A DNA stretch of 64,000 nucleotides from Armatimonadota bacterium (GCA_963677485.1 OY781964.1:1600001-1664000); one strand, 5' to 3'; positions 40,976 through 62,142 are shown, counted from the stretch's first letter. Numbers and translations: made by a program. The notes: generated from the letters alone by a model not told the origin.

Positions 40976-41101
40976 GACCAGTTAAATACAAATATGTATT
41001 GGCACTACCCACAAATTACAAATCGATTGTCGGCCTACCGCAGGTGCCATCGAATAATCCCGCCAGGTTATCTTCCCCATCAAACAGGTGACCACGCGGT
41101 A

Positions 41102-41482
41102 CTATCGCTGTTTTAGGTATGCCGCGTATGCTGCGGCATCCATCAATTCGCTGAGTTGAGACTTATCTGACAACTTCACCTTGACCAGCCAGCTATCGTA
41201 AGGTGCCGCATTGATGGCCTCCGCGGCCTTCTCAAGCGGCTTGTTGGATTCCAGCACTTCACCCGTAACCGGGGTAATGAGATCACTGGATGCTTTAATG
41301 GATTCAACTGTACCAAACATCTCATCGTGTATAATCTGTGTGCCTGCGTCACGCAGCTCTAGAAATGAGATATCGCCCAGTTCCCCTTGCGCAAAATCGG
41401 TGATGCCGATAGTGGCTATATCGCCCTCTACCAGTATCCATTCATCAGTTTTTGTGTATAACAGGTTGCTTGGGATATTCAT
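41102..41482 (-). CDS. gcvH: Glycine cleavage system H protein
   Basis: YTKTDEW, IGITDFAQGELGDI, lipoyl site VESIKASSD, PVTGEV. Confidence 0.95.
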   Translation of the reverse strand: MNIPSNLLYTKTDEWILVEGDIATIGITDFAQGELGDISFLELRDAGTQIIHDEMFGTVESIKASSDLITPVTGEVLESNKPLEKAAEAINAAPYDSWLVKVKLSDKSQLSELMDAAAYAAYLKQR

Positions 41483-41544
41483 TCATTCTCTCCTGACGTT
41501 TCGTTGTGATGGCACTCTTATCTATATTACCCGGTCGCCCCGTT

Positions 41545-41578
41545 AAAAGAGAACCCCCCGGTTCGTGGCCGAGGGGTA
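41545..41578 (-). terminator. Intrinsic terminator of SLH gene 1
   Basis: acccctcggccacgaaccggggggt hairpin then tctctttt on the minus strand; sister copy at 43955-43988. Confidence 0.75.
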
Positions 41579-41599
41579 TGAGGCGGTCAAAGAACTGTG

Positions 41600-43525
41600 C
41601 TAGAACTTTACGCTCAACTGAGCTAAAGCAACACCGGCCTTTTGATCACGGCCCAGAATCGTGCCGTCCGTCAGACCTGGCTCAAAGTAAGTGTTGCCCT
41701 TCGTATTCACGTCAATCAGCTGGTACATCAGTTTGAGGCTGGTGTTCTCAGCCACTGCCATATTGCCATACACAGTGATGTAGTTCTCATACGGGCGGGT
41801 ACGGGTTCCAACTACGGTGGTGTAGTTCTTCAGATCCCATAGCACCGCTTCGTATTCTACACCAAGGGTGGTGGTGTCAGTCATCTTCCACGCCAGGTTA
41901 GCATCAATATGACCAAGCTTGTCCTGTGGTGTGAATGGACTGGTGACACCCTTCTCGGTGCTACGGATCCCTTCAAAATACCCACCGTTGATGAGAAGGT
42001 CAAGCTTGCTTGTCTTCCAGTTGAGTTCACCGATCACCCCCTTGATACCAGTGGGGTTGATCCACGATCCTAAGCTAACCCAATAACCCGGGCTAATGAA
42101 GTAAGGTGCGAACTCCCGGTAGCCGATGCCGAGGTATCCGCTTTCGCCAATGCCGTAACGGAAACCAGCCATGATGGCATAGTTCTTTGAGGACAGCTTC
42201 GTTGAGTCGCCCTTCATCAGGTCACTCTGAGCGTAGTTAGCATAGACGTTGGTGCGCGGAAGCAGATCATTCCAAAGTAAGTCTGCACCATAAAGCCCCA
42301 GTCGGTTAGTAGGGCCAGTCTGCAGACCAAGGATTTCACCATTCGCCATCGTATCGTAGCCCATCTGTGCGTAGTTCAGTTTTAGGCTGATGTTTTCATT
42401 CGCTTGTATGCCGACCTTGACACCTGCGGATTGTGTGATATCGATGTTGTTCCAGGCGATTCGGACGCTTTGGCCATTGACCGGTAGGGTACTGATGGCC
42501 GTCATCATCATATTATCGGTATACAAGTTGGATCCGACTGTGTTATTCTTGCCAGCCCACAATCCTAACGAGATTGCACCCCAGTTTGTGTCGAGCTTTG
42601 CGCCATCCATGCTGTACAGACCGTTGGAATAACGGTCGATGCTGTTATACCAGTCGACGACTGGCTTTCGCATCAGCAGCGGATTGATGGAGTTTTCGTA
42701 GCGCCCGACAGTCAAGTCAGACTGCTTGCCAAATATGCTGACAGGGGTATTCACCGTCGCTTTCCAAATCACGACGTCTGTAGCTGGCTTGTCGTTGAAT
42801 GAAGCCGAGAACATGGAGGGGCTGCCCAGATAGTTCAGGTAGTTGCCGACAACGATCGTCGCTTCAGTCCTGGTGGTCTCGGAGAGCTGTCCCGTGATAT
42901 TCAGACCGAGTTCGTGAAGCACATTCATGTCGCTCATCAGACTCTTCTTCTGAGTAGGGATGCCGTTCTTGTCGATGGCACTCTTGTTGTCGATCATCTG
43001 GGTTCCGCGTGCGATGAAGTCTATGGTTCCACCGATTTGGATGCGGGCCATTGCATTTTCAATCGCATCAACACGCTTCTGCAGATCGGAGGTCTCCTTC
43101 TTCAGAGCTTCGACATCCACACCTAACGCTGCCAGCTCATCTTGAAATTCTATGGTCAGCTTCTGCGTTTTGGCATAGTCGTCTTTCAGCTTCGCCAAGT
43201 CTTCGGCAACCTTGGGGTCGAGTTTAGTCTCCACTTTGGTGATGGTTTCACCGGGTTTAACCACGCCGCTTTTGGCCTCAAGAGCACCCATGCGGATTTT
43301 CAGGAGGGCCAACGCATCGCGCAGGGCTATGGCGAACTCGTAACGGGTCAGATTGCGGTTTCCCTTGAATGTGCCATCAGGATATCCGTTGATGATGCCA
43401 TCATTGGCCAATTCCTGTACGGCGTCGTAGGCCCAGTGACCGGTGGGCACGTCAGGAAAGGTCTGGGCAAAAGCCGATGAGCTGATGAGCAGTACAACAC
43501 TCAAACTAACGATAATGCGGTTCAT
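41600..43525 (-). CDS. SLH domain-coiled coil-outer membrane beta-barrel protein (OmpM/SlpA-like), paralog 1
   Basis: Signal peptide, FPDVPTGHWAYDAV...GYPDGTFKGNRNLTRYEFA, EFQDELAALG, C-terminal beta-signal QLSVKF; start 43525 behind AGGAGG. Confidence 0.9.
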   Translation of the reverse strand: MNRIIVSLSVVLLISSSAFAQTFPDVPTGHWAYDAVQELANDGIINGYPDGTFKGNRNLTRYEFAIALRDALALLKIRMGALEAKSGVVKPGETITKVETKLDPKVAEDLAKLKDDYAKTQKLTIEFQDELAALGVDVEALKKETSDLQKRVDAIENAMARIQIGGTIDFIARGTQMIDNKSAIDKNGIPTQKKSLMSDMNVLHELGLNITGQLSETTRTEATIVVGNYLNYLGSPSMFSASFNDKPATDVVIWKATVNTPVSIFGKQSDLTVGRYENSINPLLMRKPVVDWYNSIDRYSNGLYSMDGAKLDTNWGAISLGLWAGKNNTVGSNLYTDNMMMTAISTLPVNGQSVRIAWNNIDITQSAGVKVGIQANENISLKLNYAQMGYDTMANGEILGLQTGPTNRLGLYGADLLWNDLLPRTNVYANYAQSDLMKGDSTKLSSKNYAIMAGFRYGIGESGYLGIGYREFAPYFISPGYWVSLGSWINPTGIKGVIGELNWKTSKLDLLINGGYFEGIRSTEKGVTSPFTPQDKLGHIDANLAWKMTDTTTLGVEYEAVLWDLKNYTTVVGTRTRPYENYITVYGNMAVAENTSLKLMYQLIDVNTKGNTYFEPGLTDGTILGRDQKAGVALAQLSVKF

Positions 43526-43625
43526 GTAGTTCCTCCTGCAGATTAATGGCTGGAAGGTCGACGATGGATTTGCTGTATGCCAGCCGCAAGACGCCACCTA
43601 ACTGAAACCCCAATCATCACATGAA

Positions 43626-43659
43626 CATGATAGAGCCGTCCCAGGTTTCCTCTATCATG
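43626..43659 (-). ncRNA. Conserved leader hairpin, copy 1
   Basis: Sense strand catgatagag-gaaa-cc-tgggac-gg-ctctatcatg. Confidence 0.65.
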
Positions 43660-43954
43660 GTGCATGCCTGTTGTTCTTCAGCATTGGCTGACGGCCGGCG
43701 ATGATTCGTGTGTCCGATCACAAAGATGCTTTGCCTTAGCAAGCATCAAGTGCTGTTTTTCAACAGTGAGATAGTCGGGTATTTCTTTTACGGAACACAC
43801 TGCCATGATGGTACCATGCTGACCACAACGAAATCTATAGATATCGAAGCTATTATGCAAATTATTGATATTCGTCTCTCATGGTATTAAGGCACATCAC
43901 GGCTGCGTCCATAGTCACAAAACATGTCGCGTGACTACGAAAGGTCAGGCAACC

Positions 43955-43988
43955 AAAAAAAGAACCCCCCGGTTTATGGCCGGGGGGT
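43955..43988 (-). terminator. Intrinsic terminator of SLH gene 2
   Basis: ccccccggccataaaccgggggg hairpin followed by ttcttttttt on the minus strand. Confidence 0.85.
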
Positions 43989-44010
43989 ATGAGGCGGTTA
44001 CGGAGTCGAG

Positions 44011-45939
44011 CTAGAACTTAACGCTCAACTGTGCAATCGCGACGCCAGCCTTCTGATAGCGGCCCAAGATTGAGCCATCAGACAGACCTGGTTCGAAGTA
44101 GTTATTGCCCTTGGAGTTCACGTCAATCATCTGATACATCAGTTTCAAGCTCGTGTTCTCTGCAAGTGCCATATTACCATACACAGTTACGTAGTTCTCA
44201 TATGGGCGAGTGCGTACACCAGCAACGTTGGTGTAGTTCTTCAGGTCCCATAATACGGCTTCGTACTCTACACCAAGGGTGGTGGTGTCATTCGTCTTCC
44301 ACGCCAGGTTAGCGTCGACATGGCCGACCTTGTCCTGAGGTGTGAATGGGCTGGTAACACCCTTCTCTGTGGTGCGGATTCCTTCGTAGTAGCCACCATT
44401 GACGGTGAGGTCAATTTTGTTCATGTTCCAGGTCAGCTTGCCATCAACACCCTTGATACCGCTGGGGTTGATCCAAGAGCCGATACGGCCCCAGTAACCA
44501 GGAGTCACGAAGTAAGGAGCTACTTCACGGTAACCTGCGCCGATGGAGATGTTCTCACCGATGCTGTAGTTAAGGCCAGCCAATACGGCATAGTTCTTAG
44601 CGGACAGCTTCGATTTGTCATTCAGCATCAGGTCGCTCTGTGCGTAGTTGGCATACATGTTCAATGCAGGGATCAGGTTGTCCCATGCCATATCTGCGCC
44701 GTATACGCCTAGTCGGTTGGTGGCGCCAGTCTGTAGGCCAAGGATAGAACCATTAGCCATGGTGTCGTAGCCCATCTGAGCATAGTTCAACTTAACCTTG
44801 ATATTCTCGTTCACTTGCATGCCGAGGTTTACACCTGCGGACTGGGTGACGAAGATATAAGGGGTGTTGGCAGTGCGGATGCTCTGGCCAGCCACTGGTA
44901 ATGAGCTGCTAGCAGCCATCAGCAGGTTGTTGCTGGAAAGGTTAGAACCGACGGTGCCGTTCTTACCTGCCCATGCGCCAAGGGTGACGGGGCCCCAGTT
45001 GGTACTGAGTTTTGCGCCGTCCATGCTGTACATGCCGTTGGAATAACGGTCGATGCTGGTGTACCAGTCAACGACGGGCTTGCTCATCAGCAGCGGGTTG
45101 ATTGAGTTCTCGTAGCGACCGACGGTCATGTCAACTTGCTTGCCAAATACGCTAACAGGGGTGTTAACGGTGGCTTTCCAGATGACGATGTCGGTTGCAG
45201 GAGCGTTGTTGTAAGATGCCGGGAAGACGGATGGGCTACCCAAGTAATCCAGCCAGTTGCCAATCACGATGGTTGCATCAGCAGTGGTGGTCTCGGAGAG
45301 CTGGCCTTTGATGTTCAGGCCGAGTTCATGAAGAACATTCATGTCACCCAACAGGCTCTTCTTCTGGGTAGGAATACCGTTCTTGTCGATGGCGCTCTTG
45401 TTGTCGATCAACTGGGTGCCGCGCACTACGAAGTCCACGGTTCCACTGATCTGGAGGCGAGCCATTGCTTTTTCAATAGCATCAACGCGCTTCTGCAGAT
45501 CGGAGGTGTCCTTCTTCAATGCTTCGACATCCACACCTAATGCGGCCAGCTCGTCCTGGAATTCCATAGCAAGCTTCTGCATTTTGGCATAGTCGGCGTT
45601 CAGTTTGGCCACTTCTTCAGCAACCTTGGGGTCGGTTACTGTTTGGACTTTGGTGATGGTTTCGCCAGGTGTGACCACACCGCTTTTGGCTTCGAGAGCA
45701 GCCATGCGGGATTTCAGGGTGGCCAGCGCGTCGCGCAGTGCAAGAGCGAACTCGTAACGGGTTAGGTTACGGTTACCCTTGAATGTGCCATCAGGATATC
45801 CCTTGATAATACCATCATTGGACAATTCCTGGATGGCGTCGTAGGCCCAGTGCCCGGTGGGCACGTCAGGATAGGTCTGGGCAAAGGCTGCGGAGCTGAT
45901 AAGCAGTGCAGCACCCAAGCTAACGATAATGCGGTTCAT
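44011..45939 (-). CDS. SLH-coiled coil-beta-barrel protein, paralog 2
   Basis: Same architecture, visibly closest to paralog 1; ends AQLSVKF. Confidence 0.9.
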   Translation of the reverse strand: MNRIIVSLGAALLISSAAFAQTYPDVPTGHWAYDAIQELSNDGIIKGYPDGTFKGNRNLTRYEFALALRDALATLKSRMAALEAKSGVVTPGETITKVQTVTDPKVAEEVAKLNADYAKMQKLAMEFQDELAALGVDVEALKKDTSDLQKRVDAIEKAMARLQISGTVDFVVRGTQLIDNKSAIDKNGIPTQKKSLLGDMNVLHELGLNIKGQLSETTTADATIVIGNWLDYLGSPSVFPASYNNAPATDIVIWKATVNTPVSVFGKQVDMTVGRYENSINPLLMSKPVVDWYTSIDRYSNGMYSMDGAKLSTNWGPVTLGAWAGKNGTVGSNLSSNNLLMAASSSLPVAGQSIRTANTPYIFVTQSAGVNLGMQVNENIKVKLNYAQMGYDTMANGSILGLQTGATNRLGVYGADMAWDNLIPALNMYANYAQSDLMLNDKSKLSAKNYAVLAGLNYSIGENISIGAGYREVAPYFVTPGYWGRIGSWINPSGIKGVDGKLTWNMNKIDLTVNGGYYEGIRTTEKGVTSPFTPQDKVGHVDANLAWKTNDTTTLGVEYEAVLWDLKNYTNVAGVRTRPYENYVTVYGNMALAENTSLKLMYQMIDVNSKGNNYFEPGLSDGSILGRYQKAGVAIAQLSVKF

Positions 45940-46042
45940 GTGGTTCCTCCTTCAGATAATTAACTGAAAGGTAGACGGTGTTTTTTAGGTATACCAGCCG
46001 CAAGCCTCCGTCTAACTGAAACCACAAACATCACATCAACAT

Positions 46043-46070
46043 CATAGAGCCTTCCCAGGTTACCTCTATG
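46043..46070 (-). ncRNA. Conserved leader hairpin, copy 2
   Basis: Sense strand catagag-gtaa-cc-tgggaa-gg-ctctatg. Confidence 0.65.
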
Positions 46071-46281
46071 TATGATGGACGCCTGCCGTAGGTCATCATT
46101 AGCTGACGGCTGGTTACCAATCGTGTGCCCAATAAGCGGAGATGCGCCGCTTCGGTTAGCATCTACCTCTGTTCCACAACAGAGCAAATATCGGGAAGTG
46201 CCCATTACGCACTACACACTGCCATGATGGTACCATGCTGTTGACACGGAATGCAATAGATTTCTAGAGTTTTCGGTAAAT

Positions 46282-47358
46282 TTACTGTGAATATCGAAAA
46301 TTTCTCCAAAACTGGTCAAAATCGTCTCTAGAAGGCGGTAGTCGCCAACCCGAAACGGGCGGCATATTGGGGTTGGGCACTACCCATTCGGGGATGACCA
46401 TGGTTGACTGTGCTGTTTTTGGGTTTTGGGCGGTATACCGGGCACTGTTCATAGCCCTCTCCGCTTTATTTAAATGGATCTGAATGTCCATCGCAGTTTT
46501 CTTGATAGAGCCGGGATCAAAACCGAGTGCTTGGAGTTCTCCTGAGAATTCGTAGCACAGGGCGACCTGCGTGACATTGTGTTGACTCAGAATAACACCC
46601 TCAGACAACAGCTTGGTTTCAGTTTCAACATCTTGATGATTATGTGACATTTCGTCGCACCAGCGGTTGACCGCAGCTTCATGCTTTGCTACCATAATCT
46701 CCAAGATGGCGGGTACAGTCATGACCATGCGGGCAAACTCATGTGGTGTGGTTTGCTGATAACTCTCTTTGGTCGGAACCCGAAATCCGGTCAGCACGCC
46801 ATCCGCAATCATCTTCCGGACAGCATCGTACGCCCAATGGTCGGAGTTAACCCCTGGCCCGTCTTGCCTAAACGAAAATAGCGACAATGCTCTTCTGATG
46901 GTGGATATAGCATTTTCTAAATCAGTGCTGAGTTTAGGAGGCTCGGTTACGTCTACAGATCGTGCGGCCAATTCGTCCTGAAATTCAATTGATAGTTTCA
47001 ATACTACCCTTACTTGTTTAGATAGATCAGTGGCAGTTTCAAGTAGCTTCTGGTAACGCTCACGTTCTGTGCGAGACGCCATGGCTATATCCGAGAAGCG
47101 CAGTTTTGGTAGAGCGGGCAGTGCATCCATGTTCTTACGAACCGAATTTACAGCCTCAATGAGGATCGTGGTAGCCTGGTCACGGGTGTATGCGGTATTG
47201 GCATCCACACCGCTCGGTCTTTTGACTACCCCGACTTCCTCCAACTCCTTAAACGCATCATAGGTCCAATGGCCAAGGGGAACAGTGGGACTTATTTGAG
47301 CCATCAGCACGGAACTCATCAGTGCAATCGCGACGATCAGTGAACACACACGGTTCAT
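46282..47358 (-). CDS. Secreted protein with two SLH-coiled-coil modules and no beta-barrel
   Basis: Signal peptide from ATG 47358 (RBS GGAGG); VPLGHWTYDAFKELEEVGVV...EFQDELAA and VNSDHWAYDAVRKMIADGVLTG...EFSGELQALG; Pro-rich tail. Confidence 0.75.
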   Translation of the reverse strand: MNRVCSLIVAIALMSSVLMAQISPTVPLGHWTYDAFKELEEVGVVKRPSGVDANTAYTRDQATTILIEAVNSVRKNMDALPALPKLRFSDIAMASRTERERYQKLLETATDLSKQVRVVLKLSIEFQDELAARSVDVTEPPKLSTDLENAISTIRRALSLFSFRQDGPGVNSDHWAYDAVRKMIADGVLTGFRVPTKESYQQTTPHEFARMVMTVPAILEIMVAKHEAAVNRWCDEMSHNHQDVETETKLLSEGVILSQHNVTQVALCYEFSGELQALGFDPGSIKKTAMDIQIHLNKAERAMNSARYTAQNPKTAQSTMVIPEWVVPNPNMPPVSGWRLPPSRDDFDQFWRNFRYSQ

Positions 47359-47549
47359 AGTTACCCTCCGTTGTGGCCTGCTCTCAGCAGACCAGTTATG
47401 ATCGAAACGGCACGTGTGAAGATGATATGCATGGTCATGATCACAACGCAACCGATTCATGGACGAACGGTGGAACCCATTTGTTACCACCGATCCGACA
47501 TAAATACGGGGTAAACAGCCTGTTGATCGGTCCGGTTGATACATATAAC

Positions 47550-47580
47550 AAAATGGCTCCCGGACCGAAGTCCGGGAGCC
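47550..47580 (-). terminator. Intrinsic terminator of SLH gene at 47602
   Basis: ggctcccggacttcggtccgggagcc (UUCG loop) then atttt; identical hairpin at 50653-50678. Confidence 0.88.
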
Positions 47581-47601
47581 CGAGTTGGTGGCAGGATGCT
47601 G

Positions 47602-49440
47602 CTAGAACTTCACGCTCAACTGAGCCACGCCCACGCCGCTGGTACCGGCATCACCGAAGATGCTCGCGGTGTTCGAAGAGGCAGAGCGTACGTCTGCTAC
47701 TTGATAAAGCAGCCGAAGTGCTGTGTTCTCCGCCAACGTCAGGGTGCTGTTCAAGGTGATGAAGCTTTGCGTCGGGTGGTAACCGGTGTTCCGCTGGTTC
47801 CACACCACAGTTTCATAATCGACGCCAAGGTTCAGATTTGAGTTGACAGAGTAGCTGAGCTTCAGCAAACCATGGGCCAGGTTATCTATCTTGGACACCG
47901 GGGCACCATTTAGTCGGATGGTTTCATACCAGCCGCCATTCAGTCCTACCCCTAATTTTCCTGTCGTCCAGTTGATGCCGCCATATGGCCCCTTCACTCC
48001 AGTAGGGTTGGTGATACTGCCCACGCGTCCCCAGTTTCCTGGAGCCGAGAACTTCGGTTGGACCTCCAGGTAGCCAGCACTGAACTTCAGGCTTTCGTTC
48101 GCGGCATATCCCACGCCTGTATTGATCGCGTAGTTCTGGGAGTTCTCCTTCTGCACATCGTTCTTGTTCAGGTTGCTCTGTGCATAGTCTGCGAATAGGC
48201 TCACTCCGCCGATCAGGTTCTTCACCTTCAGCCCGCCGCCAAACGCCTCAAGCCGGTTGGTCTCAACTACGCGGGGACCAACTACCGCTGGCTGGTATCC
48301 AAAAGCGGCATACGCTGCATTCAACGAGATATTGTCGTTGATGGCATATCCCAGAGTGACACCAGCACTCTGCTCTATGTCCAGGTTGTTGCTGTTGTTG
48401 ACAGCCTGGAACTGACCGTTAACGAAATTCGCGACATCATTGGATTTGACGGTGTTGTTCTTGCCAGCAAACAGGCCAACCGAAAGTCCGCCAAAGGAGG
48501 TGCTCAGTTTTGCCCCATCAAGACTGTAGTTGCCGTTGTCATAGGCTGCGATGTTCACATAACGGTCGTTGTCTGGCCTGCTGAAAATGAAGTAGTTGAC
48601 TTGGTGCTCATAGCGGCCTACCGTAAGGTCCACTGCCTTTCCGAACAGTGTTACCGGTAGGTTGGCTTCAGCCTTCCAGATGGCGATATCTGTATTCGGG
48701 CTTTCATTCACACCCTTGAATTGCGATGCGCTACCGTTCAGATAGGACAGGTAGTTGCTGACCAGTATAGTGGCTGAACCTGTTGCGGTGTCACTGAGTT
48801 TTGCGTCCAGGTTCAGTGCCAGGTCGTGAAGCACAGACACATTCGAAAGCAAACTGCCAGGTTTGGTGGTGTTAGTGTTCAAGTCAGGAATCCCGTTGCC
48901 GCTGAAACTCTGGCTTGACCTGGCGATCAAGTTTAGATCGGCTCCGATTTTCAGTCTGGCTTGAGCGGATTCAATGGCAGCCACCCGCTTCTGTAGATCC
49001 GCATCATCCTTCTTCAGAGCTTCCACATCTACGCCGAGAGCCGCGAGTTCATCCTGGAATTCGGTGGCAAGTTTCTGAAGCTTCACACTGTCAGTCGCCA
49101 ACCTGGTGATCTCTTCACTCACCTTCGGATCTGTTCCAGTATCGGTCTTGTTGATCACGGTGGGGCCAGCAGCCGGCTTGTTAGCGGATGCTTCCAGTGC
49201 AGACAGGCGGGTTCGGACCGTGGTCAGTGCATCGCGAATGGCAAGTGCGAACTCGTAACGGGTGAGGTTGCGGTTGCCCTTGAATGTACCGTCTGGATAT
49301 CCCTTGATGATGCCGTCCTGGGTGAGTTCCGTGATGGCATCGTAGGCCCAGTGACCGGTCGGAACGTCGGGGTAGGTCTGTGCGTGAACCGCCGTGGCAA
49401 CCAGCAGCAAGGCACTGAAACCAGATAGAGTGCGTTTCAT
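47602..49440 (-). CDS. SLH-coiled coil-beta-barrel protein, paralog 3
   Basis: Signal peptide from ATG 49440, YPDVPTGHWAYDAI...TRYEFA, EFQDELAALG, ends AQLSVKF. Confidence 0.9.
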   Translation of the reverse strand: MKRTLSGFSALLLVATAVHAQTYPDVPTGHWAYDAITELTQDGIIKGYPDGTFKGNRNLTRYEFALAIRDALTTVRTRLSALEASANKPAAGPTVINKTDTGTDPKVSEEITRLATDSVKLQKLATEFQDELAALGVDVEALKKDDADLQKRVAAIESAQARLKIGADLNLIARSSQSFSGNGIPDLNTNTTKPGSLLSNVSVLHDLALNLDAKLSDTATGSATILVSNYLSYLNGSASQFKGVNESPNTDIAIWKAEANLPVTLFGKAVDLTVGRYEHQVNYFIFSRPDNDRYVNIAAYDNGNYSLDGAKLSTSFGGLSVGLFAGKNNTVKSNDVANFVNGQFQAVNNSNNLDIEQSAGVTLGYAINDNISLNAAYAAFGYQPAVVGPRVVETNRLEAFGGGLKVKNLIGGVSLFADYAQSNLNKNDVQKENSQNYAINTGVGYAANESLKFSAGYLEVQPKFSAPGNWGRVGSITNPTGVKGPYGGINWTTGKLGVGLNGGWYETIRLNGAPVSKIDNLAHGLLKLSYSVNSNLNLGVDYETVVWNQRNTGYHPTQSFITLNSTLTLAENTALRLLYQVADVRSASSNTASIFGDAGTSGVGVAQLSVKF

Positions 49441-49522
49441 GTTCGTATTCCTCCATGTAGTGTGTGTGTCTGGTGATAGGAGCTGCACCAAACCCTCAAC
49501 ACCCACAATGCGCTATCTGAGT

Positions 49523-49548
49523 CAAGAGCCTTCCCAGGTTTCCTCTTG
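49523..49548 (-). ncRNA. Conserved leader hairpin, copy 3
   Basis: Sense strand caagag-gaaa-cc-tgggaa-gg-ctcttg. Confidence 0.65.
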
Positions 49549-49764
49549 CCACACGGACTCGCTCGTGTCATGACTGAAGGGTCATAGCATCTCTTTAATT
49601 CACCGCAGGCAGATCGGAATGATCATTTTATTCCGTTGTTGACTATTCCGCTCTGCTTTATATGTTTTATCATACCATGCCAAATCCTGGATGTCAAATC
49701 TTGGATGCAAACCGTCTTTTCATCATGAGGTGGATATGAAACGAGGTTGTTTGTATATGGAGGA

Positions 49765-50500
49765 GCACCCGCCCATGCTGACACGGCGGCCTATGAAGTA
49801 GCTGATGATGTCACACTGAGGCGACACAGTGATAATCGGGTGGCTGTACGCCTCTGTTGCAGCCCAGCGTTGCCTATGTCCGGGGCGGTCTGTGCGCAGG
49901 CTAGCGGATGCAGAAGGCTCAAGACCGCGCCGGTCTGGCGGACAGCCACCAAAGATTCGTGTCAGGAACAAGCACCCGCCCGTGCATGCACGGCAGTCCT
50001 GGGTATAGCTGATGATGTCACACTGAGGCGACAGAGTGATATTCGAATGGCTGTATGCCTCTGTGGCAGCCGAGCGTGGCCTATGTCCGGGGCGGTCTGT
50101 ACGCAGGCTAACGGATGCAGAAGGCTCAAGACCGCGCCGGTCTGGCGGACAGCCACGAAAGATTTGTGTCAGGAATAAGACCGGCCCGTGCATGCACGGC
50201 AGCCCAAGGAGTAGCTGATGATGTCCGCTTCAAGAGTTACGAGATACAAGGGGGTTCCGAGAATAATAAGTCAGTCTATTGCCCATAAATATTGCGTGGC
50301 CAGCAGGTCACCGGTTCCGCGACATAAATGTCTCGGCTATTGAACACCAAGACTGCTGAAGCAGTCTTCATTAACGTTATCTTTGTCGGCAAGGAGCTCC
50401 GCAGCACGGTTTAGCGGGCTTGCTGATCAATAGCCGAGACATTTATGTCGCGGCACATGGTCGATACGATCCCAATCTGGATATGCGGGTAATAGACCGT
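49765..50500. repeat. Two 207-bp-period units plus a ccgcgacat-family REPIN
   Basis: gctgatgatgtc at 49801, 50008 and 50214; core tgtccggggcggtctg...agaccgcgccggtctggcgg; 50317-50453 is an inverse copy of 34546-34682. Confidence 0.9.
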
Positions 50501-50642
50501 CCTTTAAGGCGAGGGGGGGGTATATGAATTTTGGGTATTGGACTGCGCTTTAGCGCGTGGTGCGGTAGTTATGTTTAACTACGACAAAACCCCACTCCGA
50601 CCTTTGGGTAACCTACTGGGTGCAAAGAAGAATCCGTGACTA

Positions 50643-50678
50643 AAACAAAAAAGGCTCCCGGACCGAAGTCCGGGAGCC
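50643..50678 (-). terminator. Intrinsic terminator of SLH gene at 50700
   Basis: ggctcccggacttcggtccgggagcc followed by tttttt on the minus strand. Confidence 0.9.
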
Positions 50679-50699
50679 AGAGTTGGATACGGGAAGCTA

Positions 50700-52529
50700 C
50701 TAGAACTTCACGCTCAACTGGGCAACGGCAACGCCGCTCGTGCTGTTCGCAGCGCCAACATAGCTGGCGGTGGAGGTGCGCACGTCAATCACTTGATACA
50801 TCAAGCGAAGGGCGGTGTTCTCGGCCAGGTTCAGGTTGCTGCTCAGGGTGATAAGAGCCTCAGATGGCTTCTTGTCGGAGTCAGCAAGCTTCCAAACTAC
50901 GGTGTCGTAGTCCAGGCCAAGGTTCAGGTTCTCGTTAACAGCATAGCTAAGCTTTGCGTCGACGTGGGTAAGGTTGGTGCTGGGGGTAAGCATAGGTCGA
51001 ATACCCTCATACCAGCCGCCGTTCACATTGAGGCCGAGCTTGCCGGCATTCCAATTGATCGCAGCGTCTACACCCTTAAGACCGGTGGGGTTAATCCAGC
51101 GGCCCATGCGGCCCCAGTCACCAGCGGCCACGAAGTCCGGCTGAACTTCACGGTAGCCGGCCTTCAGGCCCAGGCTGTCGTTGATTGCATAGCTAGCACC
51201 AGCCAAAATGGCATAGTTCTTGCTGTTCATTTTCTGAACGTCGTTCTTGTTCAGGTTGCTCTGTGCGAAGTCAGCATAAACATCAACTGCTCCGAAGAGG
51301 TTGTTAGCCTTGAGGCTTCCACCGAATGTTTCCAGTCGGTTGTCCACACCACCACCGAGAACGGGGGTGCTGTAGCCAGAAGCGACATAAGCGGCACTCA
51401 GGCTGATGTTTTCGCCGAAGTTCAGGCCCATGGTCACGCCAGCGGTCTGATCGAGTTCCACAACAGGTGCAGGAGTGGAGCCGATGATGCTTGTGTTCAA
51501 CATCATGGACATGAAGTTGTCGCCATTGTTGCTCGTGACGGTGTTGTTCTTACCAGCGAACATGCCGAGGGACACTGGGCCAAAGCTGGTGGCGAGTTTA
51601 GCGCCGTCCATGCTGTAGTTGCCATTGTCAAATGCGGCGATGTTTACATAAGCGTCGTTGTCAACACGCTTCAGGATGAGCGGGCTCACCTGATTCTCAT
51701 AACGGCCAACGGTTACGTCAATTGCCTTGCCGAATACGGAGATGGGCAGGTTGGCTGCAGCCTTCCAAATCACGATGTCGGTGTTGGGGCTGCTGTTGTA
51801 ACCACCAAACTGAGAAGCACTGCCTTCTAGGTAAGGAAGGTAGTTGCTGATCAGCAGAGTAGCGCTACCTGTGGCGGTGTCGCTCAACTTAGCGTCGAGG
51901 TTCAGGGCCAGGTTATGCAGCACGTCTACGTTGGAAAGCAGGCCACCGGCGTAGGTTTCTACACCATTCAGGTCAGCAGTTGTGCGGTTGCTGAAGCTCT
52001 GGGTGCCGCGGACGATGAAATCCAGGTCAGCACTGATCTTCAGCTTAGCCATAGCGGCCTCGATGGCAGCTACGCGCTTCTGTAGGTCAGAGTTGTCCTT
52101 CTTCAGGGCTTCCACGTCTACACCAAGAGCGGCCAACTCGTCCTGGAACTCCGTGGCAAGCTTCTGCAGCTTGGCACTGTCAGCGGCGAGCTTTGTGAGC
52201 TCAGCGGTGACTTTGGGGTCCGTAACCGTCTCAACTTTGTTGATGACGGTGGGGGCGACTGCCGGCTTGTTAGCTGCAGCTTCGAGTGCAGCAATCCGGG
52301 TCTTCACGGTGCTCAGAGCATCGCGAATGGCCAGTGCAAACTCGTAGCGTGTCAGGTTGCGATTGCCCTTGTAGGTCCCATCCGGATAGCCCTTCACAAT
52401 TCCATCATTCGTTAGTTCGGTGATGGCGTCGTAGGCCCAATGTCCGGTCGGAACGTCAGGGTAGGTCTGGGAAAATGCTGCTGTGCTTAAAAGAACAACT
52501 GCTCCCAGGCTAATCAGGATTCGGTTCAT
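50700..52529 (-). CDS. SLH-coiled coil-beta-barrel protein, paralog 4
   Basis: Same architecture, visibly closest to paralog 3; ends AQLSVKF. Confidence 0.9.
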   Translation of the reverse strand: MNRILISLGAVVLLSTAAFSQTYPDVPTGHWAYDAITELTNDGIVKGYPDGTYKGNRNLTRYEFALAIRDALSTVKTRIAALEAAANKPAVAPTVINKVETVTDPKVTAELTKLAADSAKLQKLATEFQDELAALGVDVEALKKDNSDLQKRVAAIEAAMAKLKISADLDFIVRGTQSFSNRTTADLNGVETYAGGLLSNVDVLHNLALNLDAKLSDTATGSATLLISNYLPYLEGSASQFGGYNSSPNTDIVIWKAAANLPISVFGKAIDVTVGRYENQVSPLILKRVDNDAYVNIAAFDNGNYSMDGAKLATSFGPVSLGMFAGKNNTVTSNNGDNFMSMMLNTSIIGSTPAPVVELDQTAGVTMGLNFGENISLSAAYVASGYSTPVLGGGVDNRLETFGGSLKANNLFGAVDVYADFAQSNLNKNDVQKMNSKNYAILAGASYAINDSLGLKAGYREVQPDFVAAGDWGRMGRWINPTGLKGVDAAINWNAGKLGLNVNGGWYEGIRPMLTPSTNLTHVDAKLSYAVNENLNLGLDYDTVVWKLADSDKKPSEALITLSSNLNLAENTALRLMYQVIDVRTSTASYVGAANSTSGVAVAQLSVKF

Positions 52530-52645
52530 GATTGTTGGTTCCTCCGTTTCAGGTGTACTGAAAGCTGAGTAGATTTGGGTGTTGTGCCCAAATATGAGTT
52601 AGAACCAGCCGATGTCTCTTCACCGGAACCGGAACCACAATTTTA

Positions 52646-52671
52646 CAAGAGCCTGCCAGGGTTACCTCTTG
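52646..52671 (-). ncRNA. Conserved leader hairpin, copy 4
   Basis: Sense strand caagag-gtaa-cc-ctggca-gg-ctcttg. Confidence 0.6.
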
Positions 52672-53069
52672 CCATTGTGTTTCTTAATCCGGATCAGATG
52701 CTTAGGCTGGCTCTAATCTCCTGAGTGTGCTCCCCGTCCGCTGATCTCGAAGATCGACCCTACTCCACAGAAGGGGCGGATGGCGACTGCCCATTACACA
52801 AGACACACCAAAGGAATCTTACCACCTATTATTGGGGTAAGCAAGCTAAAATAACAGCAGAATCAAACATATTGGCATATATTTGTGAATATTTCATAAA
52901 TTCACCCTAAAATAGCTCTAAACACGACTGCAATATGGCACAGATGCGCCTGAATACTAGGTACAATCACTATTTCTATAGGAAGCGGGGGTGGTGATAT
53001 CCGCGAGCCGTATACAAATTGTCGCATGTCTTCCGCGGATCATCGGTGTGCTAAAATGAGCTCAGAGGT

Positions 53070-54011
53070 GTGATGCAGATGGGCCAACAACTAGTAGAAT
53101 GTGTGCCGAATGTCAGTGAAGGCCGGAATCAATCGGTCATCGCACAAATGGCGGATGTCGTTCAAAACACATCAGGTGTCACATTGGCCAACATACACTC
53201 TGACCCAGATCACAACCGCACAGTATTTACCTTCTACGGTACCCCAGACAGCGTGAAGCAAGCTGTCATCGCCCTGGCGCACCAATGTGTAAGGCTGATC
53301 GATATGACCAAACACGATGGCATGCACCCATGCCTCGGTGCCCTGGATGTGTGCCCGTTTGTGCCCATGCAGAATTGCCCAATGGCGAGTTGCATTGAGT
53401 TGGCGCGGTCAACCGCCGAAGCCATTTCGGAAGCCGTGGGCGTTCCATGTTACCTTTATGAGCATGCCGCCCTCAAGACAGACCGAAAGGCGCTGCCTGT
53501 GATTCGCAAAGGCGGATTCTCAGGGCGTGTAGGCCAACCACAGCAGGATGCATTAGCACCAGACTATGGGCCATCTCTCTTGCACCCCACCGCAGGGGCA
53601 TCAATAGTTGGGGCGCGATGGCCACTCGTGGCATATAACATTAATCTGGCAGGCCCCTACCTCAACGAAGCACGGCAGATCGCCCGGCAGGTGAGGCAAG
53701 AGCGAAACACCAATCCGGCGTTAACAGGGGTACGAGCCCTGGGTCTTCTGCTGCCATCCAAAAACCAGGCACAGGTCAGCATGAACCTCACGCAGCCCAA
53801 CAAGACGCCCATAGAGGGCGTCTATAAATATATATGCGGGCTGGCCCACTCATTGGGTGTAGCGACCGCCGATGCCGAACTGGTCGGATGCCTGCCAATT
53901 TCGATGCTGCAAGATGCCCTGAAGCAGGCCTTCGGCTGGCCATGCATTGACATCGGTCAGATACTGCCCATCGAACTGGGTGGCGCAGGAACGGAAACAG
54001 ATCTCTCATGA
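53070..54011 (+). CDS. ftcd: Glutamate formimidoyltransferase
   Basis: LVECVPNVSEGR, DPDHNRTV, IDMTKHDGMHPCLGALDVCPFVP, HPTAGA, LVAYNINL, QVSMNLT. Confidence 0.92.
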   Translation: MMQMGQQLVECVPNVSEGRNQSVIAQMADVVQNTSGVTLANIHSDPDHNRTVFTFYGTPDSVKQAVIALAHQCVRLIDMTKHDGMHPCLGALDVCPFVPMQNCPMASCIELARSTAEAISEAVGVPCYLYEHAALKTDRKALPVIRKGGFSGRVGQPQQDALAPDYGPSLLHPTAGASIVGARWPLVAYNINLAGPYLNEARQIARQVRQERNTNPALTGVRALGLLLPSKNQAQVSMNLTQPNKTPIEGVYKYICGLAHSLGVATADAELVGCLPISMLQDALKQAFGWPCIDIGQILPIELGGAGTETDLS

Positions 54012-60616: not shown

Positions 60617-60817
60617 TGGTGAGCTCCCCGGACACCAAAAGCAGTCGGGGAGCTAATCTCACCCCTTAGCTGGGGGTGAAGGAGAAGGATTGGATGCCGG
60701 AACCGCCCCTGGTGGAAAACACCGTGACGTAGATAGGCATCCTTCTCCCAATCAACCCATATCGAACAGTATCTTGGGAGAAAACCCCGTGTTCGCTAGG
60801 CTGATTTGGTTGATTGC
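60617..60817 (+). ncRNA. Predicted IS110 bridge RNA
   Basis: Two 5' hairpins; target loop (stem ggagaagga..tgcc/ggcatccttctcc) containing gaaccgcccct and cgtag; donor loop (stem caatcaacc/ggttgattg) containing acagtatct and gctag. Confidence 0.85.
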
Positions 60818-60849
60818 ACCATCAATCACTACCAACTGGAGATTACCAC

Positions 60850-62142
60850 ATGCACGAAGTTGAAGACAAAATCTACATCCATTATGTCGGGATCGACATC
60901 TCGAAATTGACGTTTGACGCGTCTGTATTAGGTTCATCGCACAAGCCGATAGACCATAAGGAGTTCAAGAACAACAAGGCCGGATACAAGGAGTTGTTGT
61001 CATGGGTGAAGAAGCTTACCCGAACTCCCGCCTTGTATGCGGCTGAAGCCACCGGGCCTTACAGCCGACCGCTGCTTGATTACCTCTACGAGCACCAGCA
61101 CGATGCTGTCCAACTGGAGCCAAAACGGGTTCTCTATCACCGCAAAGCCAAAGGCTGGGAACAAAAGACGGACTGCTCTGACAGCGTGCTAATCGCTGAC
61201 TATGTGAAAAGTCACAATGTCTCACTCTATGTCCCTCGTCTAGCATGCTATGATGCGCTTATTGGTTACACCAATGACCGCCGTATGCTGGTGCAACACA
61301 GACAGGCGATCGCCCAGCGCCAAAGCTGTCGGCTTACGCGGAGCACAGTGCTGGACGAGATGATCGCTTTTCATGACATGGGCATCAAAAAGCTTGATGT
61401 TCAGATCAAAGAGCTTGTGATGAGTTCACCGCAGATGACCGAAGATATGGCTCTGCTGAAGAGCATTCCGGGTATCGGCGACGTCACAGCAAGCTATTTC
61501 CTTGCGAAAATCGGTGATGCTAAACGATTTGAAACATCGAAAGCGGTCGCGCGCTATTTCGGAATGAACCCCTGCCCGCAACGGTCAGGAAGCTGCAAGA
61601 CATACGACGGCTCCATATCCAAGATGGGTGACCGATATATGCGGACATTACTCTACTGTGGATCGAGCACTGTGGTGAAGATGGTCAACGGTAAGTCGAA
61701 AAAGCTTGGCCAGAGCATGCACGACTTCGTGAAGGAACTGCAGCATCCGAATTTGGTAAAGAATCCCAATAAGAAACCGAAGTCCAAGCGAGTTGTCCGG
61801 TGCGCAATCATGCGCAAGCAGCTGGTGCTCATGTGGTCGGTATTAATCAGCCGTCAGCCATATGATCCAAACTTCGGCATCGAACAAGCTTCAAATGCGG
61901 CCAACCAGCAACCGCTGACCGACGCGAACGGACATGTCCAGGATCGTGCCGGAGCGGCCCATGATATAGCCGGTGTAGGCAATGATCCTGGGCTGGACGT
62001 GAGCGTTCCAAGACGGGGATGCGTGGATGGAAATCCCACCAATGAGCCCACTCCTGCCGGCGGTGGTCGGCCCGCATCCCGAAACCGGCCATCGCGCAGT
62101 CGGGTGGGCAACAAACCGAGGGTTCTGACACCAGTATCCTAG
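60850..62142 (+). CDS. IS110 family DEDD recombinase/transposase
   Basis: VGIDISK, AEATG, KTDCSDS, SIPGIG, RFETSKAVARYFGMNP...SGS, SKMGDRYMR; start ATG 60850 behind GGAG. Confidence 0.95.
   Translation: MHEVEDKIYIHYVGIDISKLTFDASVLGSSHKPIDHKEFKNNKAGYKELLSWVKKLTRTPALYAAEATGPYSRPLLDYLYEHQHDAVQLEPKRVLYHRKAKGWEQKTDCSDSVLIADYVKSHNVSLYVPRLACYDALIGYTNDRRMLVQHRQAIAQRQSCRLTRSTVLDEMIAFHDMGIKKLDVQIKELVMSSPQMTEDMALLKSIPGIGDVTASYFLAKIGDAKRFETSKAVARYFGMNPCPQRSGSCKTYDGSISKMGDRYMRTLLYCGSSTVVKMVNGKSKKLGQSMHDFVKELQHPNLVKNPNKKPKSKRVVRCAIMRKQLVLMWSVLISRQPYDPNFGIEQASNAANQQPLTDANGHVQDRAGAAHDIAGVGNDPGLDVSVPRRGCVDGNPTNEPTPAGGGRPASRNRPSRSRVGNKPRVLTPVS

Follow-up and report, generated by a model that had tools for sequence, protein, structure and literature searches.

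Why should four paralogous genes for SLH-barrel envelope proteins, clustered in one Armatimonadota genome, each carry the same hairpin in the 5' leader? We addressed this question in a stretch of 64,000 nucleotides (nt) (GCA_963677485.1 OY781964.1:1600001-1664000; hereafter the window, with positions counted from its first letter), for which a reading of the sequence alone (the sequence-only reading) had proposed a candidate cis-regulatory RNA ahead of these four genes, here called slh1 to slh4. Judged by covariance-model comparison, the hairpin is a family-specific lineage variant of an uncatalogued, cross-phylum RNA motif that precedes outer-membrane protein genes. It is very probably a real, selected RNA element; that it acts as a docking site setting the stability or translation of outer-membrane protein mRNAs is about an even bet (rough probability 0.5). 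The coordinates of all features are collected in Table 1.

The hairpin in the four leaders

The core pattern AGAGGWAACCNNGGNNGGCTCT matches all four SLH-barrel leaders without a mismatch, as the sequence-only reading had anticipated. These are the four exact matches in the window, all on the gene strand, against 0.02 expected from window shuffles. Across the whole genome (5,220,040 bases in one contig, 97% complete), in which slh1 to slh4 are the only full-length paralogs, a tolerance of up to two mismatches adds a single match (two mismatches), which we read as chance because it lies inside a large adhesin-like open reading frame (ORF) on the opposite strand. With covariance model R1, whose training set was 28 family sequences, the genome likewise yields just four matches, all in SLH-barrel leaders. 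The 3' ends of the hairpins lie 100, 104, 83 and 117 nt ahead of the start codons of slh1 to slh4, close to the 84-118 nt first proposed.

Within the family the loop form is nearly invariant, reading GAG, then G-U/A-A-A-C-C-(N)UGG-N1-2-GG, then CUC; GGA is present in three of the four window loops, and the slh4 loop reads GGC. Alignment and folds both show closing stems that change compensatorily between the four leaders, and the alignment places the UUG(U/G)GG box downstream of the hairpin in every one of them, as had been claimed. This box belongs to the 3' strand of the stem that encloses the hairpin and recurs in genus g3, not in genus g2. The CCAGCC/GGCUGG outer helix suggested for three leaders was recovered by minimum-free-energy folding in leaders 1, 2 and 4, and the barrel-less middle gene, said to lack the element, has no covariance-model match. 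The description as a bulged hairpin held for the coordinates and the stem; the inner CC:GG helix is better described as a conserved loop of 12-14 nt on a covarying stem. The inner CC:GG pairs are invariant and show no covariation, which is a weak point of the hairpin reading.

Leader architecture and transcripts

An extended -10-like word, TGGTAnnAT, stands 220-290 nt before the start codon in all four leaders, and the slh3 promoter, with 11/12 in the promoter scan, is the best sigma-70-type site of the region. Measured from the predicted start sites, the hairpin sits ~115-190 nt inside the transcribed region. In the folds, a leader consists of a 5' domain of ~100 nt, an unbranched stem and a small hairpin in which part of the Shine-Dalgarno region is paired, and the conserved hairpin forms the tip of the unbranched stem in all four window leaders and in 11/11 folded leaders of genera g1 and g3. 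Hairpins adjoining the ribosome-binding site, like that of slh2, are also predicted in the other leaders and in genus g3. For genus g2, the alignment fold of 13 leaders yields a long-range helix (columns 20-28 with 159-167) that encloses the hairpin; this helix and the inner helices around the hairpin contain some compensatory changes, and the helix covering the Shine-Dalgarno sequence is invariant, so that covariation is uninformative for it. Compared with shuffles, the whole-leader folds gave z = -5.07 for slh2 and z = -2.93 for slh4.

The hairpin is transcribed, a point on which the sequence-only reading had staked its claim: public metatranscriptome contigs from a relative ~96% identical to this genome (four runs from four studies) run through it. 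In two runs the slh2 coding region and its whole leader lie on single contigs (44003-46204), and two shorter slh2 contigs end at 46055 and 46030. The slh4 contigs extend from 50690 or 50723 up to 52753, 52789, 52793 or 52803. Illumina adapter sequence directly follows the contig sequence at 52803 and, in one of the two runs, at 46204, and these ends fall 6-16 nt short of the predicted slh2 and slh4 start sites. Depth was 30-173 over slh2 and slh4, against 0-2 over the promoters, the middle gene and the divergent formiminotransferase (FTCD) gene, and no contig enters a promoter, the middle gene or the FTCD gene. The runs contain no cover of slh1, slh3 or the middle gene, paralogs which the relative may lack or carry in a different form.

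In two runs (X10 and X16) one contig joins slh4-like sequence at 52354 to slh1-like sequence at 43367, with 16 other letters between them; the relative may thus carry a hybrid or rearranged slh paralog.

Conservation within the family

The family survey took in all SLH-barrel genes of the 17 other genomes of the family, with gene starts detected by script. By pattern and R1 together, the element is present in 18/18 family genomes. It stands 105-140 nt ahead of 29 of the 38 detected SLH-barrel starts, with one divergent copy recognised by eye and later scored at 21 bits by R1. The nine starts without it are those of eight downstream tandem genes of genus g2, which follow a terminator, and of one G002 paralog with a short leader. 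R1 adds copies at contig ends of G010 and G006 and ahead of a second G004 gene. Further pattern hits in g2 (GGAGGGAACCGCAGATGGCTCT) were rejected as chance matches to the ribosome-binding site and start codon of a ribosomal-protein-like gene.

A recent paralog in G001 (G001:C1:2471921-2473843; leader at ~4845-5243 of locus L109) amounts to a natural deletion variant: the promoter, the 5' domain and the ribosome-binding-site hairpin are kept, and the stem bearing the conserved hairpin is replaced by a short hairpin.

Covariation of the closing stem, expected of a larger alignment, scored above shuffles in the family set (27 sequences) and in the wider set described below (88 sequences). Among the 27 distinct family sequences, 81.1% of stem cells are paired versus 70.9% after shuffling (0/500 shuffles reach it) and the covariation score is 0.215 versus 0.083 shuffled (0/500) and 0.05-0.11 with slid partners, comparisons that overstate the support since the sequences are related. 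Pair 9:30, next to the invariant GAG:CUC, is AU in nine sequences, GC in five and UA in four.

A motif shared across phyla

Outside the family, R1 found nothing convincing: 137 further genomes sampled from the phylum gave three weak hits (loci L143-L145, E-value 0.001-0.009), which sit in ORF-like sequence, and 73 SLH loci of other lineages gave none. Among metagenome relatives R1 gave 20 strong hits and five weak ones (13-15 bits), of which 25/25 lie on the gene strand upstream of a gene. The weak hits represent a shorter form, and one of them (L182) has an otherwise invariant G:C turned to C:G. A post hoc regular expression found 45 matches in the 55,942 nt of upstream sense sequence of the SLH loci versus seven in the other 765,894 nt. 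The two length variants resisted joint alignment with MAFFT (alignment A8). A second covariance model, R2, was built from 21 short-form sequences. Cross-scores were low, at ~13-15 bits for R1 on the general form and for R2 on the family form.

R2 produced 39 hits in 28 of 75 SLH-gene loci of named genomes, 29 of them outside its training set and 39/39 on the gene strand. In nearly all cases the distance to the gene start is 60-170 nt, whether that gene is the first or a second or third in tandem. The carriers include Veillonella parvula, V. infantium, V. caviae, Acidaminococcus, Halanaerobiales, a Synergistaceae metagenome-assembled genome (MAG), Riflebacteria, 'Zipacnadia', Armatimonadia and Abditibacteriales, and V. 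seminalis has three copies, one ahead of each tandem paralog. Two carrier records are titled as one-membraned taxa (Agathobacter and Acholeplasmataceae); these contigs may be mis-binned. In five whole genomes (~18.5 Mb, E <= 0.1) there were only eight R2 hits, all in SLH-gene clusters. The Acidaminococcus whole genome gave no R2 hit at E <= 0.1, none was found in the whole genomes of Nostoc (8.1 Mb) and a Thermotogaceae MAG, and the searched loci of Vulcanimicrobiota/Eremiobacterota, Dormibacterota, several Synergistales and Megamonas were likewise without one.

Among 151 genomes of the window's own phylum, 29 have one R2 hit each, none of them from the window's family, which has the R1 form. 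In 21 of the 29, a gene starts 36-231 nt downstream of the hit and encodes a match to the SLH proteins of the window (E <= 1e-18); six hits precede two other families of signal-peptide proteins, and two look like chance. Among 151 genomes of the Veillonella phylum, 22 have R2 hits, often two to four in tandem; among the 30 matches listed, 11 precede SLH genes and most of the others precede genes for signal-peptide proteins. Fifteen non-SLH downstream products (10 from the Veillonella phylum) were compared with Pfam and yielded one Porin_4 porin, one TonB-receptor plug and one weak OMP_b-brl match. Because of these non-SLH downstream genes, the motif marks outer-membrane protein genes and not SLH genes alone. 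The expectation that hits would be confined to SLH-barrel leaders is thus borne out by R1 in this genome and not by the wider motif, and the proposed four-copy local element proves too narrow a description.

In genomes of the window's phylum, the signal-peptide proteins downstream of the R2 hits L253, L258, L263 and L265 form one family, and those of L257 and L259 another; they have no Pfam match and share the leader motif. Both may be families of uncharacterised outer-membrane proteins.

The sequence-only reading had not recognised a known riboswitch, and no known RNA family matches the element: against Rfam 15, the interval 41000-54000 of the window gave only two chance matches of snoRNA type at E <= 10, both off the element, and twelve loci from other lineages gave no match at the motif at E <= 1. 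No description of the motif was found in the literature searched. Veillonella motifs have been reported before gltD, ilvD and potE (Brewer et al. 2021, PMC8632094), and the terms S-layer, SLH, outer membrane and porin never occur in the main text of that paper. Among cis-regulatory leader hairpins, an established kind of element, we regard it as a new family of RNA motifs.

Consensus and covariation of the wider motif

The general motif was defined from 88 distinct sequences aligned to R2 (alignment A10). It consists of a covarying stem closed by (G/A)AG:CU(C/U) and a 12-nt loop, G-N-A-A-C-R-N-G-G-A-N-A. Six loop positions and the two innermost stem pairs, counted as eight invariant positions, are the same in 88/88 sequences, and GGA occurs in 86/88 loops. 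The third stem pair (10:32) is GC in 62 sequences, AU in 16 and CG in three; the fourth is U:A in 24, A:U in 14, G:C in 11 and C:G in 10. The covariation score was 0.433 versus 0.161 shuffled (0/500) and 0.07-0.23 with slid partners, margins that again overstate the support since A10 was fitted to R2. Conservation is limited to the loop and the three closing pairs, with no conserved junctions or flank, and the enclosing stems are unrelated in sequence between lineages and much shorter in Veillonella. The window's family has GG at the place of the last A of the general loop, which makes two extra pairs with the preceding CC possible, and L257, from the same phylum, is intermediate between the family loop and the general one.

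A docking site, its candidate readers and the alternatives

A stem that varies freely yet always holds out the same twelve or so nucleotides suggests a site that is read by something else, and the recurrence of the motif at several outer-membrane protein genes of one genome points to a common reader by which their mRNA stability or translation would be coupled. Control at decay and initiation would fit the long structured leaders, the Shine-Dalgarno-covering hairpins and an upstream box found in other lineages. In the model that we favour, each slh gene would be its own transcription unit with an untranslated leader of 220-280 nt, the mid-leader unbranched stem (~125 nt) would serve to present the loop, and the loop would be the sequence-specific docking site of a trans-acting factor, probably a protein. 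Once docked, the factor would determine how stable outer-membrane protein mRNAs are or how well they are translated, in such a way that the paralogs respond together. That the element binds a protein or governs stability and thereby coordinates the synthesis of envelope proteins, as the sequence-only reading had suggested, is the most plausible of the functions considered; a dedicated trans-acting factor docking there has an even chance at best, perhaps a little less.

Obvious readers were examined individually. A CsrA/RsmA site is a GGA in a hairpin loop, and the exposed GGA of the leader hairpins, common to most window and general-motif loops, resembles one. The CsrA option raised by the sequence-only reading nevertheless fell away: PF02599 had no hit in this genome, where the control searches were positive, three of five other carriers tested (V. 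parvula, V. seminalis and Acidaminococcus) have no csrA gene, and the invariant AAC and A26 lie outside a CsrA site. Hfq is encoded here and in the genome from Halanaerobiales but was not found in three of five genomes tested (two Veillonella and one possibly incomplete Synergistaceae MAG), which rules it out as the common reader. A regular-expression scan of the 16S rRNA gene of this genome and 5.5 kb downstream found no motif-like hairpin, so mimicry of rRNA was rejected. A leader peptide starting at an NUG within the loop was rejected as well: the triplet is mostly AUG or GUG, also UUG, and CUG in the window's family, about 20 of the 88 loops have the non-start triplets AAG, ACG or GGG, and no frame is conserved, the frames spanning 3-63 codons plus two read-throughs and differing between close orthologs (36 vs 12 codons, for example). 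A search with the 13-nt loop complement in five genomes of the Veillonella phylum led mainly to the hairpin sites themselves and argues against an antisense small RNA, short seeds apart.

Several observations weigh against the docking-site reading, besides the leniency of the shuffle controls noted above. The element is dispensable for some paralogs: 8/8 detected downstream tandem g2 genes are without it, the fifth paralog of G001, missed by the script, no longer has any of the stem, and the hairpin is missing from the short leader of one G002 paralog. Two of the five covariation measures fail to exceed shuffles in the family and wider sets alike; double-change pairs are reached by 453/500 shuffles in the family and 499/500 in the wider set, and further pair types by 283/500 and 129/500, respectively. 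Isolated 46-nt hairpins only modestly beat shuffles (z -0.13 to -1.93). Some genome hits are chance-like, with L246 inside a hemC-like gene, L268 poor and L301-L303 without a suitable downstream gene. The obvious RNA-binding regulators cannot be the common reader because CsrA and Hfq are missing from several carriers. A 5' end is not proved by contigs, and an RNA library may in principle contain DNA; single-gene contigs that end sharply at the predicted starts are nonetheless what is expected from monocistronic mRNAs with 280-nt leaders.

One alternative takes the hairpin as a ribosome decoy or standby site, in which GAGG, 4-6 nt before the start-like NUG, would bind a 30S subunit that does not translate productively and shields the leader from 5'-to-3' decay or feeds the true start. 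The GAGG is invariant, column 21 of A10 is U in 68/88 sequences (mostly AUG or GUG in the loop), NUG occurs in 27/28 loops of the window's family (mostly CUG), and the 16S rRNA of this genome ends in the canonical CACCUCCUUU. A Shine-Dalgarno-like box of the GAAAGGAGGUG type also lies upstream of the hairpin in 27/89 leaders of other lineages versus 1/89 antisense, but the window's own leaders lack it. Moreover, the GAG of the GAGG is base-paired in the covarying stem, the non-start triplets and unlike NUG frames that tell against a leader peptide also tell against a decoy, and the invariant AAC and A26 are left without a role; we consider this account unlikely. A purely cis-acting structure, such as a nuclease barrier, a processing site (for a double-strand-specific RNase, for example) or a Rho shield, would do without a reader altogether. 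It would suit the very stable whole-leader folds, the unbranched stems of 35-45 pairs and the fact that the genes encode abundant envelope proteins, a class with known 5' UTR (untranslated region) stabilisers (PMC7509114), and two slh2 contigs do end inside or just after the hairpin (46055 and 46030). Those ends are, however, matched neither in slh4 nor in the two other runs, Veillonella has a much shorter enclosing structure, and the eight invariant positions, mostly in the loop, would go unexplained while the stems vary, which makes such a structure less probable still.

If the reader were a small RNA encoded in trans, the exposed loop would give all outer-membrane protein mRNAs a common address for repression or activation by one such RNA, much as envelope-stress small RNAs of enterobacteria control ompA (PMC7509114) and further porin mRNAs; an invariant single-stranded loop common to several genes per genome (two to four in the Veillonella phylum, four here) is what this would require. 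In V. parvula (G155), however, the 13-nt complement with at most one mismatch finds nothing beyond the two hairpin sites, no Hfq turned up in the two Veillonella genomes or the Synergistaceae genome, and loop invariance over at least five phyla would need an equally conserved small RNA, which is unusual, so that this version has little to recommend it. Least probable of all is that the leader senses a small molecule as a riboswitch or that the element is an operator in the DNA, bound by a dimeric transcription factor. The long structured leader with a downstream Shine-Dalgarno-occluding hairpin recalls a riboswitch, but conservation is confined to a loop of 12-14 nt, with no conserved multi-helix core, junctions or flank, and the surrounding stem is wholly different between lineages. 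The element is an inverted repeat, as an operator might be, yet its half-sites covary instead of staying conserved, it is always on the gene strand (39/39 R2 locus hits, 25/25 metagenome hits) and it lies ~115-190 nt inside the transcribed region; its G:U pairs and its asymmetry likewise favour an RNA over a DNA site.

The genes and their neighbourhood

A profile of the four SLH-barrel proteins matches Veillonella OmpM (8BYS, 8BYM) and Deinococcus SlpA (7ZGX), with the match confined to the SLH domain and the stalk, and sub-threshold Pfam matches suggest a putative C-terminal beta-barrel in the slh1-slh4 products. The two segments of the middle-gene product are each ~30-34% identical to the N-terminus of the barrel proteins, and no Pfam family was found for them. 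Since a strong terminator-like hairpin follows each of slh1 to slh4, each gene looks like its own transcription unit. The terminators of slh3 and slh4 have the same sequence, and the slh1 terminator is near-identical to that of slh2; evidently, duplication of the genes took their leaders and terminators along. The FTCD gene is likewise divergent in G010 and G006, and the neighbourhood is thus conserved across the family.

An ORF of 156 amino acids (aa) between slh3 and slh4 (49723-50193, minus strand) is not a gene and belongs to a dispersed short repeat family; its translation has well over 100 tblastn matches genome-wide, often as tandem pieces. An IS110-family transposase gene lies at 60814-62142 (plus strand).

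Table 1. Features of the slh region, in window coordinates
Feature	Position	Strand	Basis and remarks
Apical hairpin, slh1 leader	43626-43659 (core 43632-43653)	-	Pattern without mismatch; R1 34.6 bits; hairpin fold
Apical hairpin, slh2 leader	46043-46070 (core 46046-46067)	-	Pattern without mismatch; R1 38.9 bits; covered by RNA contigs
Apical hairpin, slh3 leader	49523-49548 (core 49525-49546)	-	Pattern without mismatch; R1 32.7 bits; fold
Apical hairpin, slh4 leader	52646-52671 (core 52648-52669)	-	Pattern without mismatch; R1 38.5 bits; covered by RNA contigs
Predicted 5' UTR, slh1 (~276 nt)	43526-43801	-	Start suggested by extended -10-like TGGTACCAT at 43808-43816
Predicted 5' UTR, slh2 (~281 nt)	45940-46220	-	-10-like TACCAT at 46227-46232; RNA contigs
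Predicted 5' UTR, slh3 (~222 nt)	49441-49662	-	Promoter TTGACA-17-TG-TATGAT at 49669-49697
Predicted 5' UTR, slh4 (~280 nt)	52530-52809	-	-10-like TAAGAT at 52816-52821; RNA contigs
Predicted unbranched stem (domain 2), slh1 leader	43579-43699	-	Minimum-free-energy fold; 121 nt, 38 pairs, hairpin at tip
Predicted unbranched stem, slh2 leader	45988-46118	-	Fold; 131 nt, 45 pairs; outer helix ACCAGCCG/CGGCUGGU
Predicted unbranched stem, slh3 leader	49472-49604	-	Fold; 133 nt, 40 pairs
Predicted unbranched stem, slh4 leader	52596-52720	-	Fold; 125 nt, 35 pairs; outer helix UUAGAGCCAGCC/GGCUGGUUCUAA
Predicted hairpin adjoining slh2 ribosome-binding site (CCUUUCAG...CUGAAGG)	45945-45975	-	Folds only; pairs part of the Shine-Dalgarno region
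slh1, SLH domain, stalk and putative beta-barrel (641 aa)	41600-43525	-	Pfam SLH, N-terminal; barrel putative
slh2 (642 aa, 78% identity to slh1)	44011-45939	-	Pfam SLH, N-terminal
slh3 (612 aa)	47602-49440	-	Pfam SLH, N-terminal
slh4 (609 aa)	50700-52529	-	Pfam SLH, N-terminal; weak OMP_b-brl match below Pfam cut-off
Middle gene, between slh2 and slh3	46282-47544	-	Two successive SLH-like/stalk-like segments, no barrel
Terminator-like hairpin 3' of slh1	41553-41577	-	Sequence scan
Terminator-like hairpin 3' of slh2	43964-43988	-	Sequence scan
Terminator-like hairpin 3' of slh3	47555-47580	-	Sequence scan
Terminator-like hairpin 3' of slh4	50653-50678	-	Sequence scan
FTCD gene, divergent from first SLH-barrel gene	53070-54011	+	Also in G010 and G006 (L133, L151)

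Relation to known leader elements and significance

The hp2 hairpin in the 5' UTR of E. coli rne, attributed to work by Diwa and colleagues in 2000, reportedly mediates feedback and is read in trans by RNase E. The present element resembles it as a short conserved stem-loop in a long leader, with sequence-specific nucleotides displayed on a stem and a reading in trans that is here proposed; it differs in having no sequence or model similarity (no Rfam match of the rne type) and in serving a gene class in many phyla instead of one gene. In the STAB-SD or polypurine 5' stabilisers of Bacillus, a purine tract like a ribosome-binding site stabilises the mRNA, and the leaders considered here share with them a purine tract of Shine-Dalgarno type that stands well ahead of the true start codon, in long leaders of strongly expressed genes. 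Unlike in those stabilisers, the GAG of the hairpin is paired, GAGG(U) is complementary to only 4-5 nt of the CACCUCCUUU tail, and the window is without a strong box. The GAAAGGAGGUG-type boxes of other lineages, found at loci that include L038, L040, L042, L048, L057, L075, L272 and L273, lie 32-125 nt upstream of the hairpin (most at 64-125), are fully complementary to the 16S 3' tail and look STAB-SD-like. E. coli ompA, likewise an abundant outer-membrane protein mRNA with a long 5' UTR, is subject to post-transcriptional control of stability and translation, including by small RNAs (PMC7509114). The ompA stabiliser stands at the very 5' end, whereas the hairpin described here lies ~115-190 nt inside the leader, has a loop that is invariant across phyla and occurs in several carriers from which Hfq is missing; the window leaders also have other hairpins nearer the 5' end.

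In most two-membraned Terrabacteria the outer membrane is tied to the cell wall chiefly by OmpM-type proteins, a tethering system whose ancestral origin is under discussion (PMC10628300; bioRxiv 10.1101/2021.05.31.446380). In the literature searched we found nothing on the control of OmpM synthesis, and the word UTR has no occurrence in the text searched of PMC10628300 and of the preprint 10.1101/2023.08.14.552755. The wide distribution of the motif and its link to OmpM raise its interest. Its presence in at least five phylum-level lineages provides a handle, as it predicts a shared regulator recoverable with the RNA, and a candidate regulon becomes definable by sequence alone; V. parvula, where OmpM has already been studied, carries the motif.

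If the element is what it appears to be, RNA biology would gain a new and widely distributed cis-regulatory motif. More tentatively, and with the odds somewhat against it, the motif could be an ancient RNA 'address label' that, through a conserved reader, defines a post-transcriptional regulon of outer-membrane proteins across two-membraned Terrabacteria, with Negativicutes, Halanaerobiales, Synergistota, Armatimonadota and Riflebacteria as its lineages. Such a label would be a Terrabacterial counterpart of the sigma-E and small-RNA control of porins in Proteobacteria, travelling with the ancestral OmpM tethering system.

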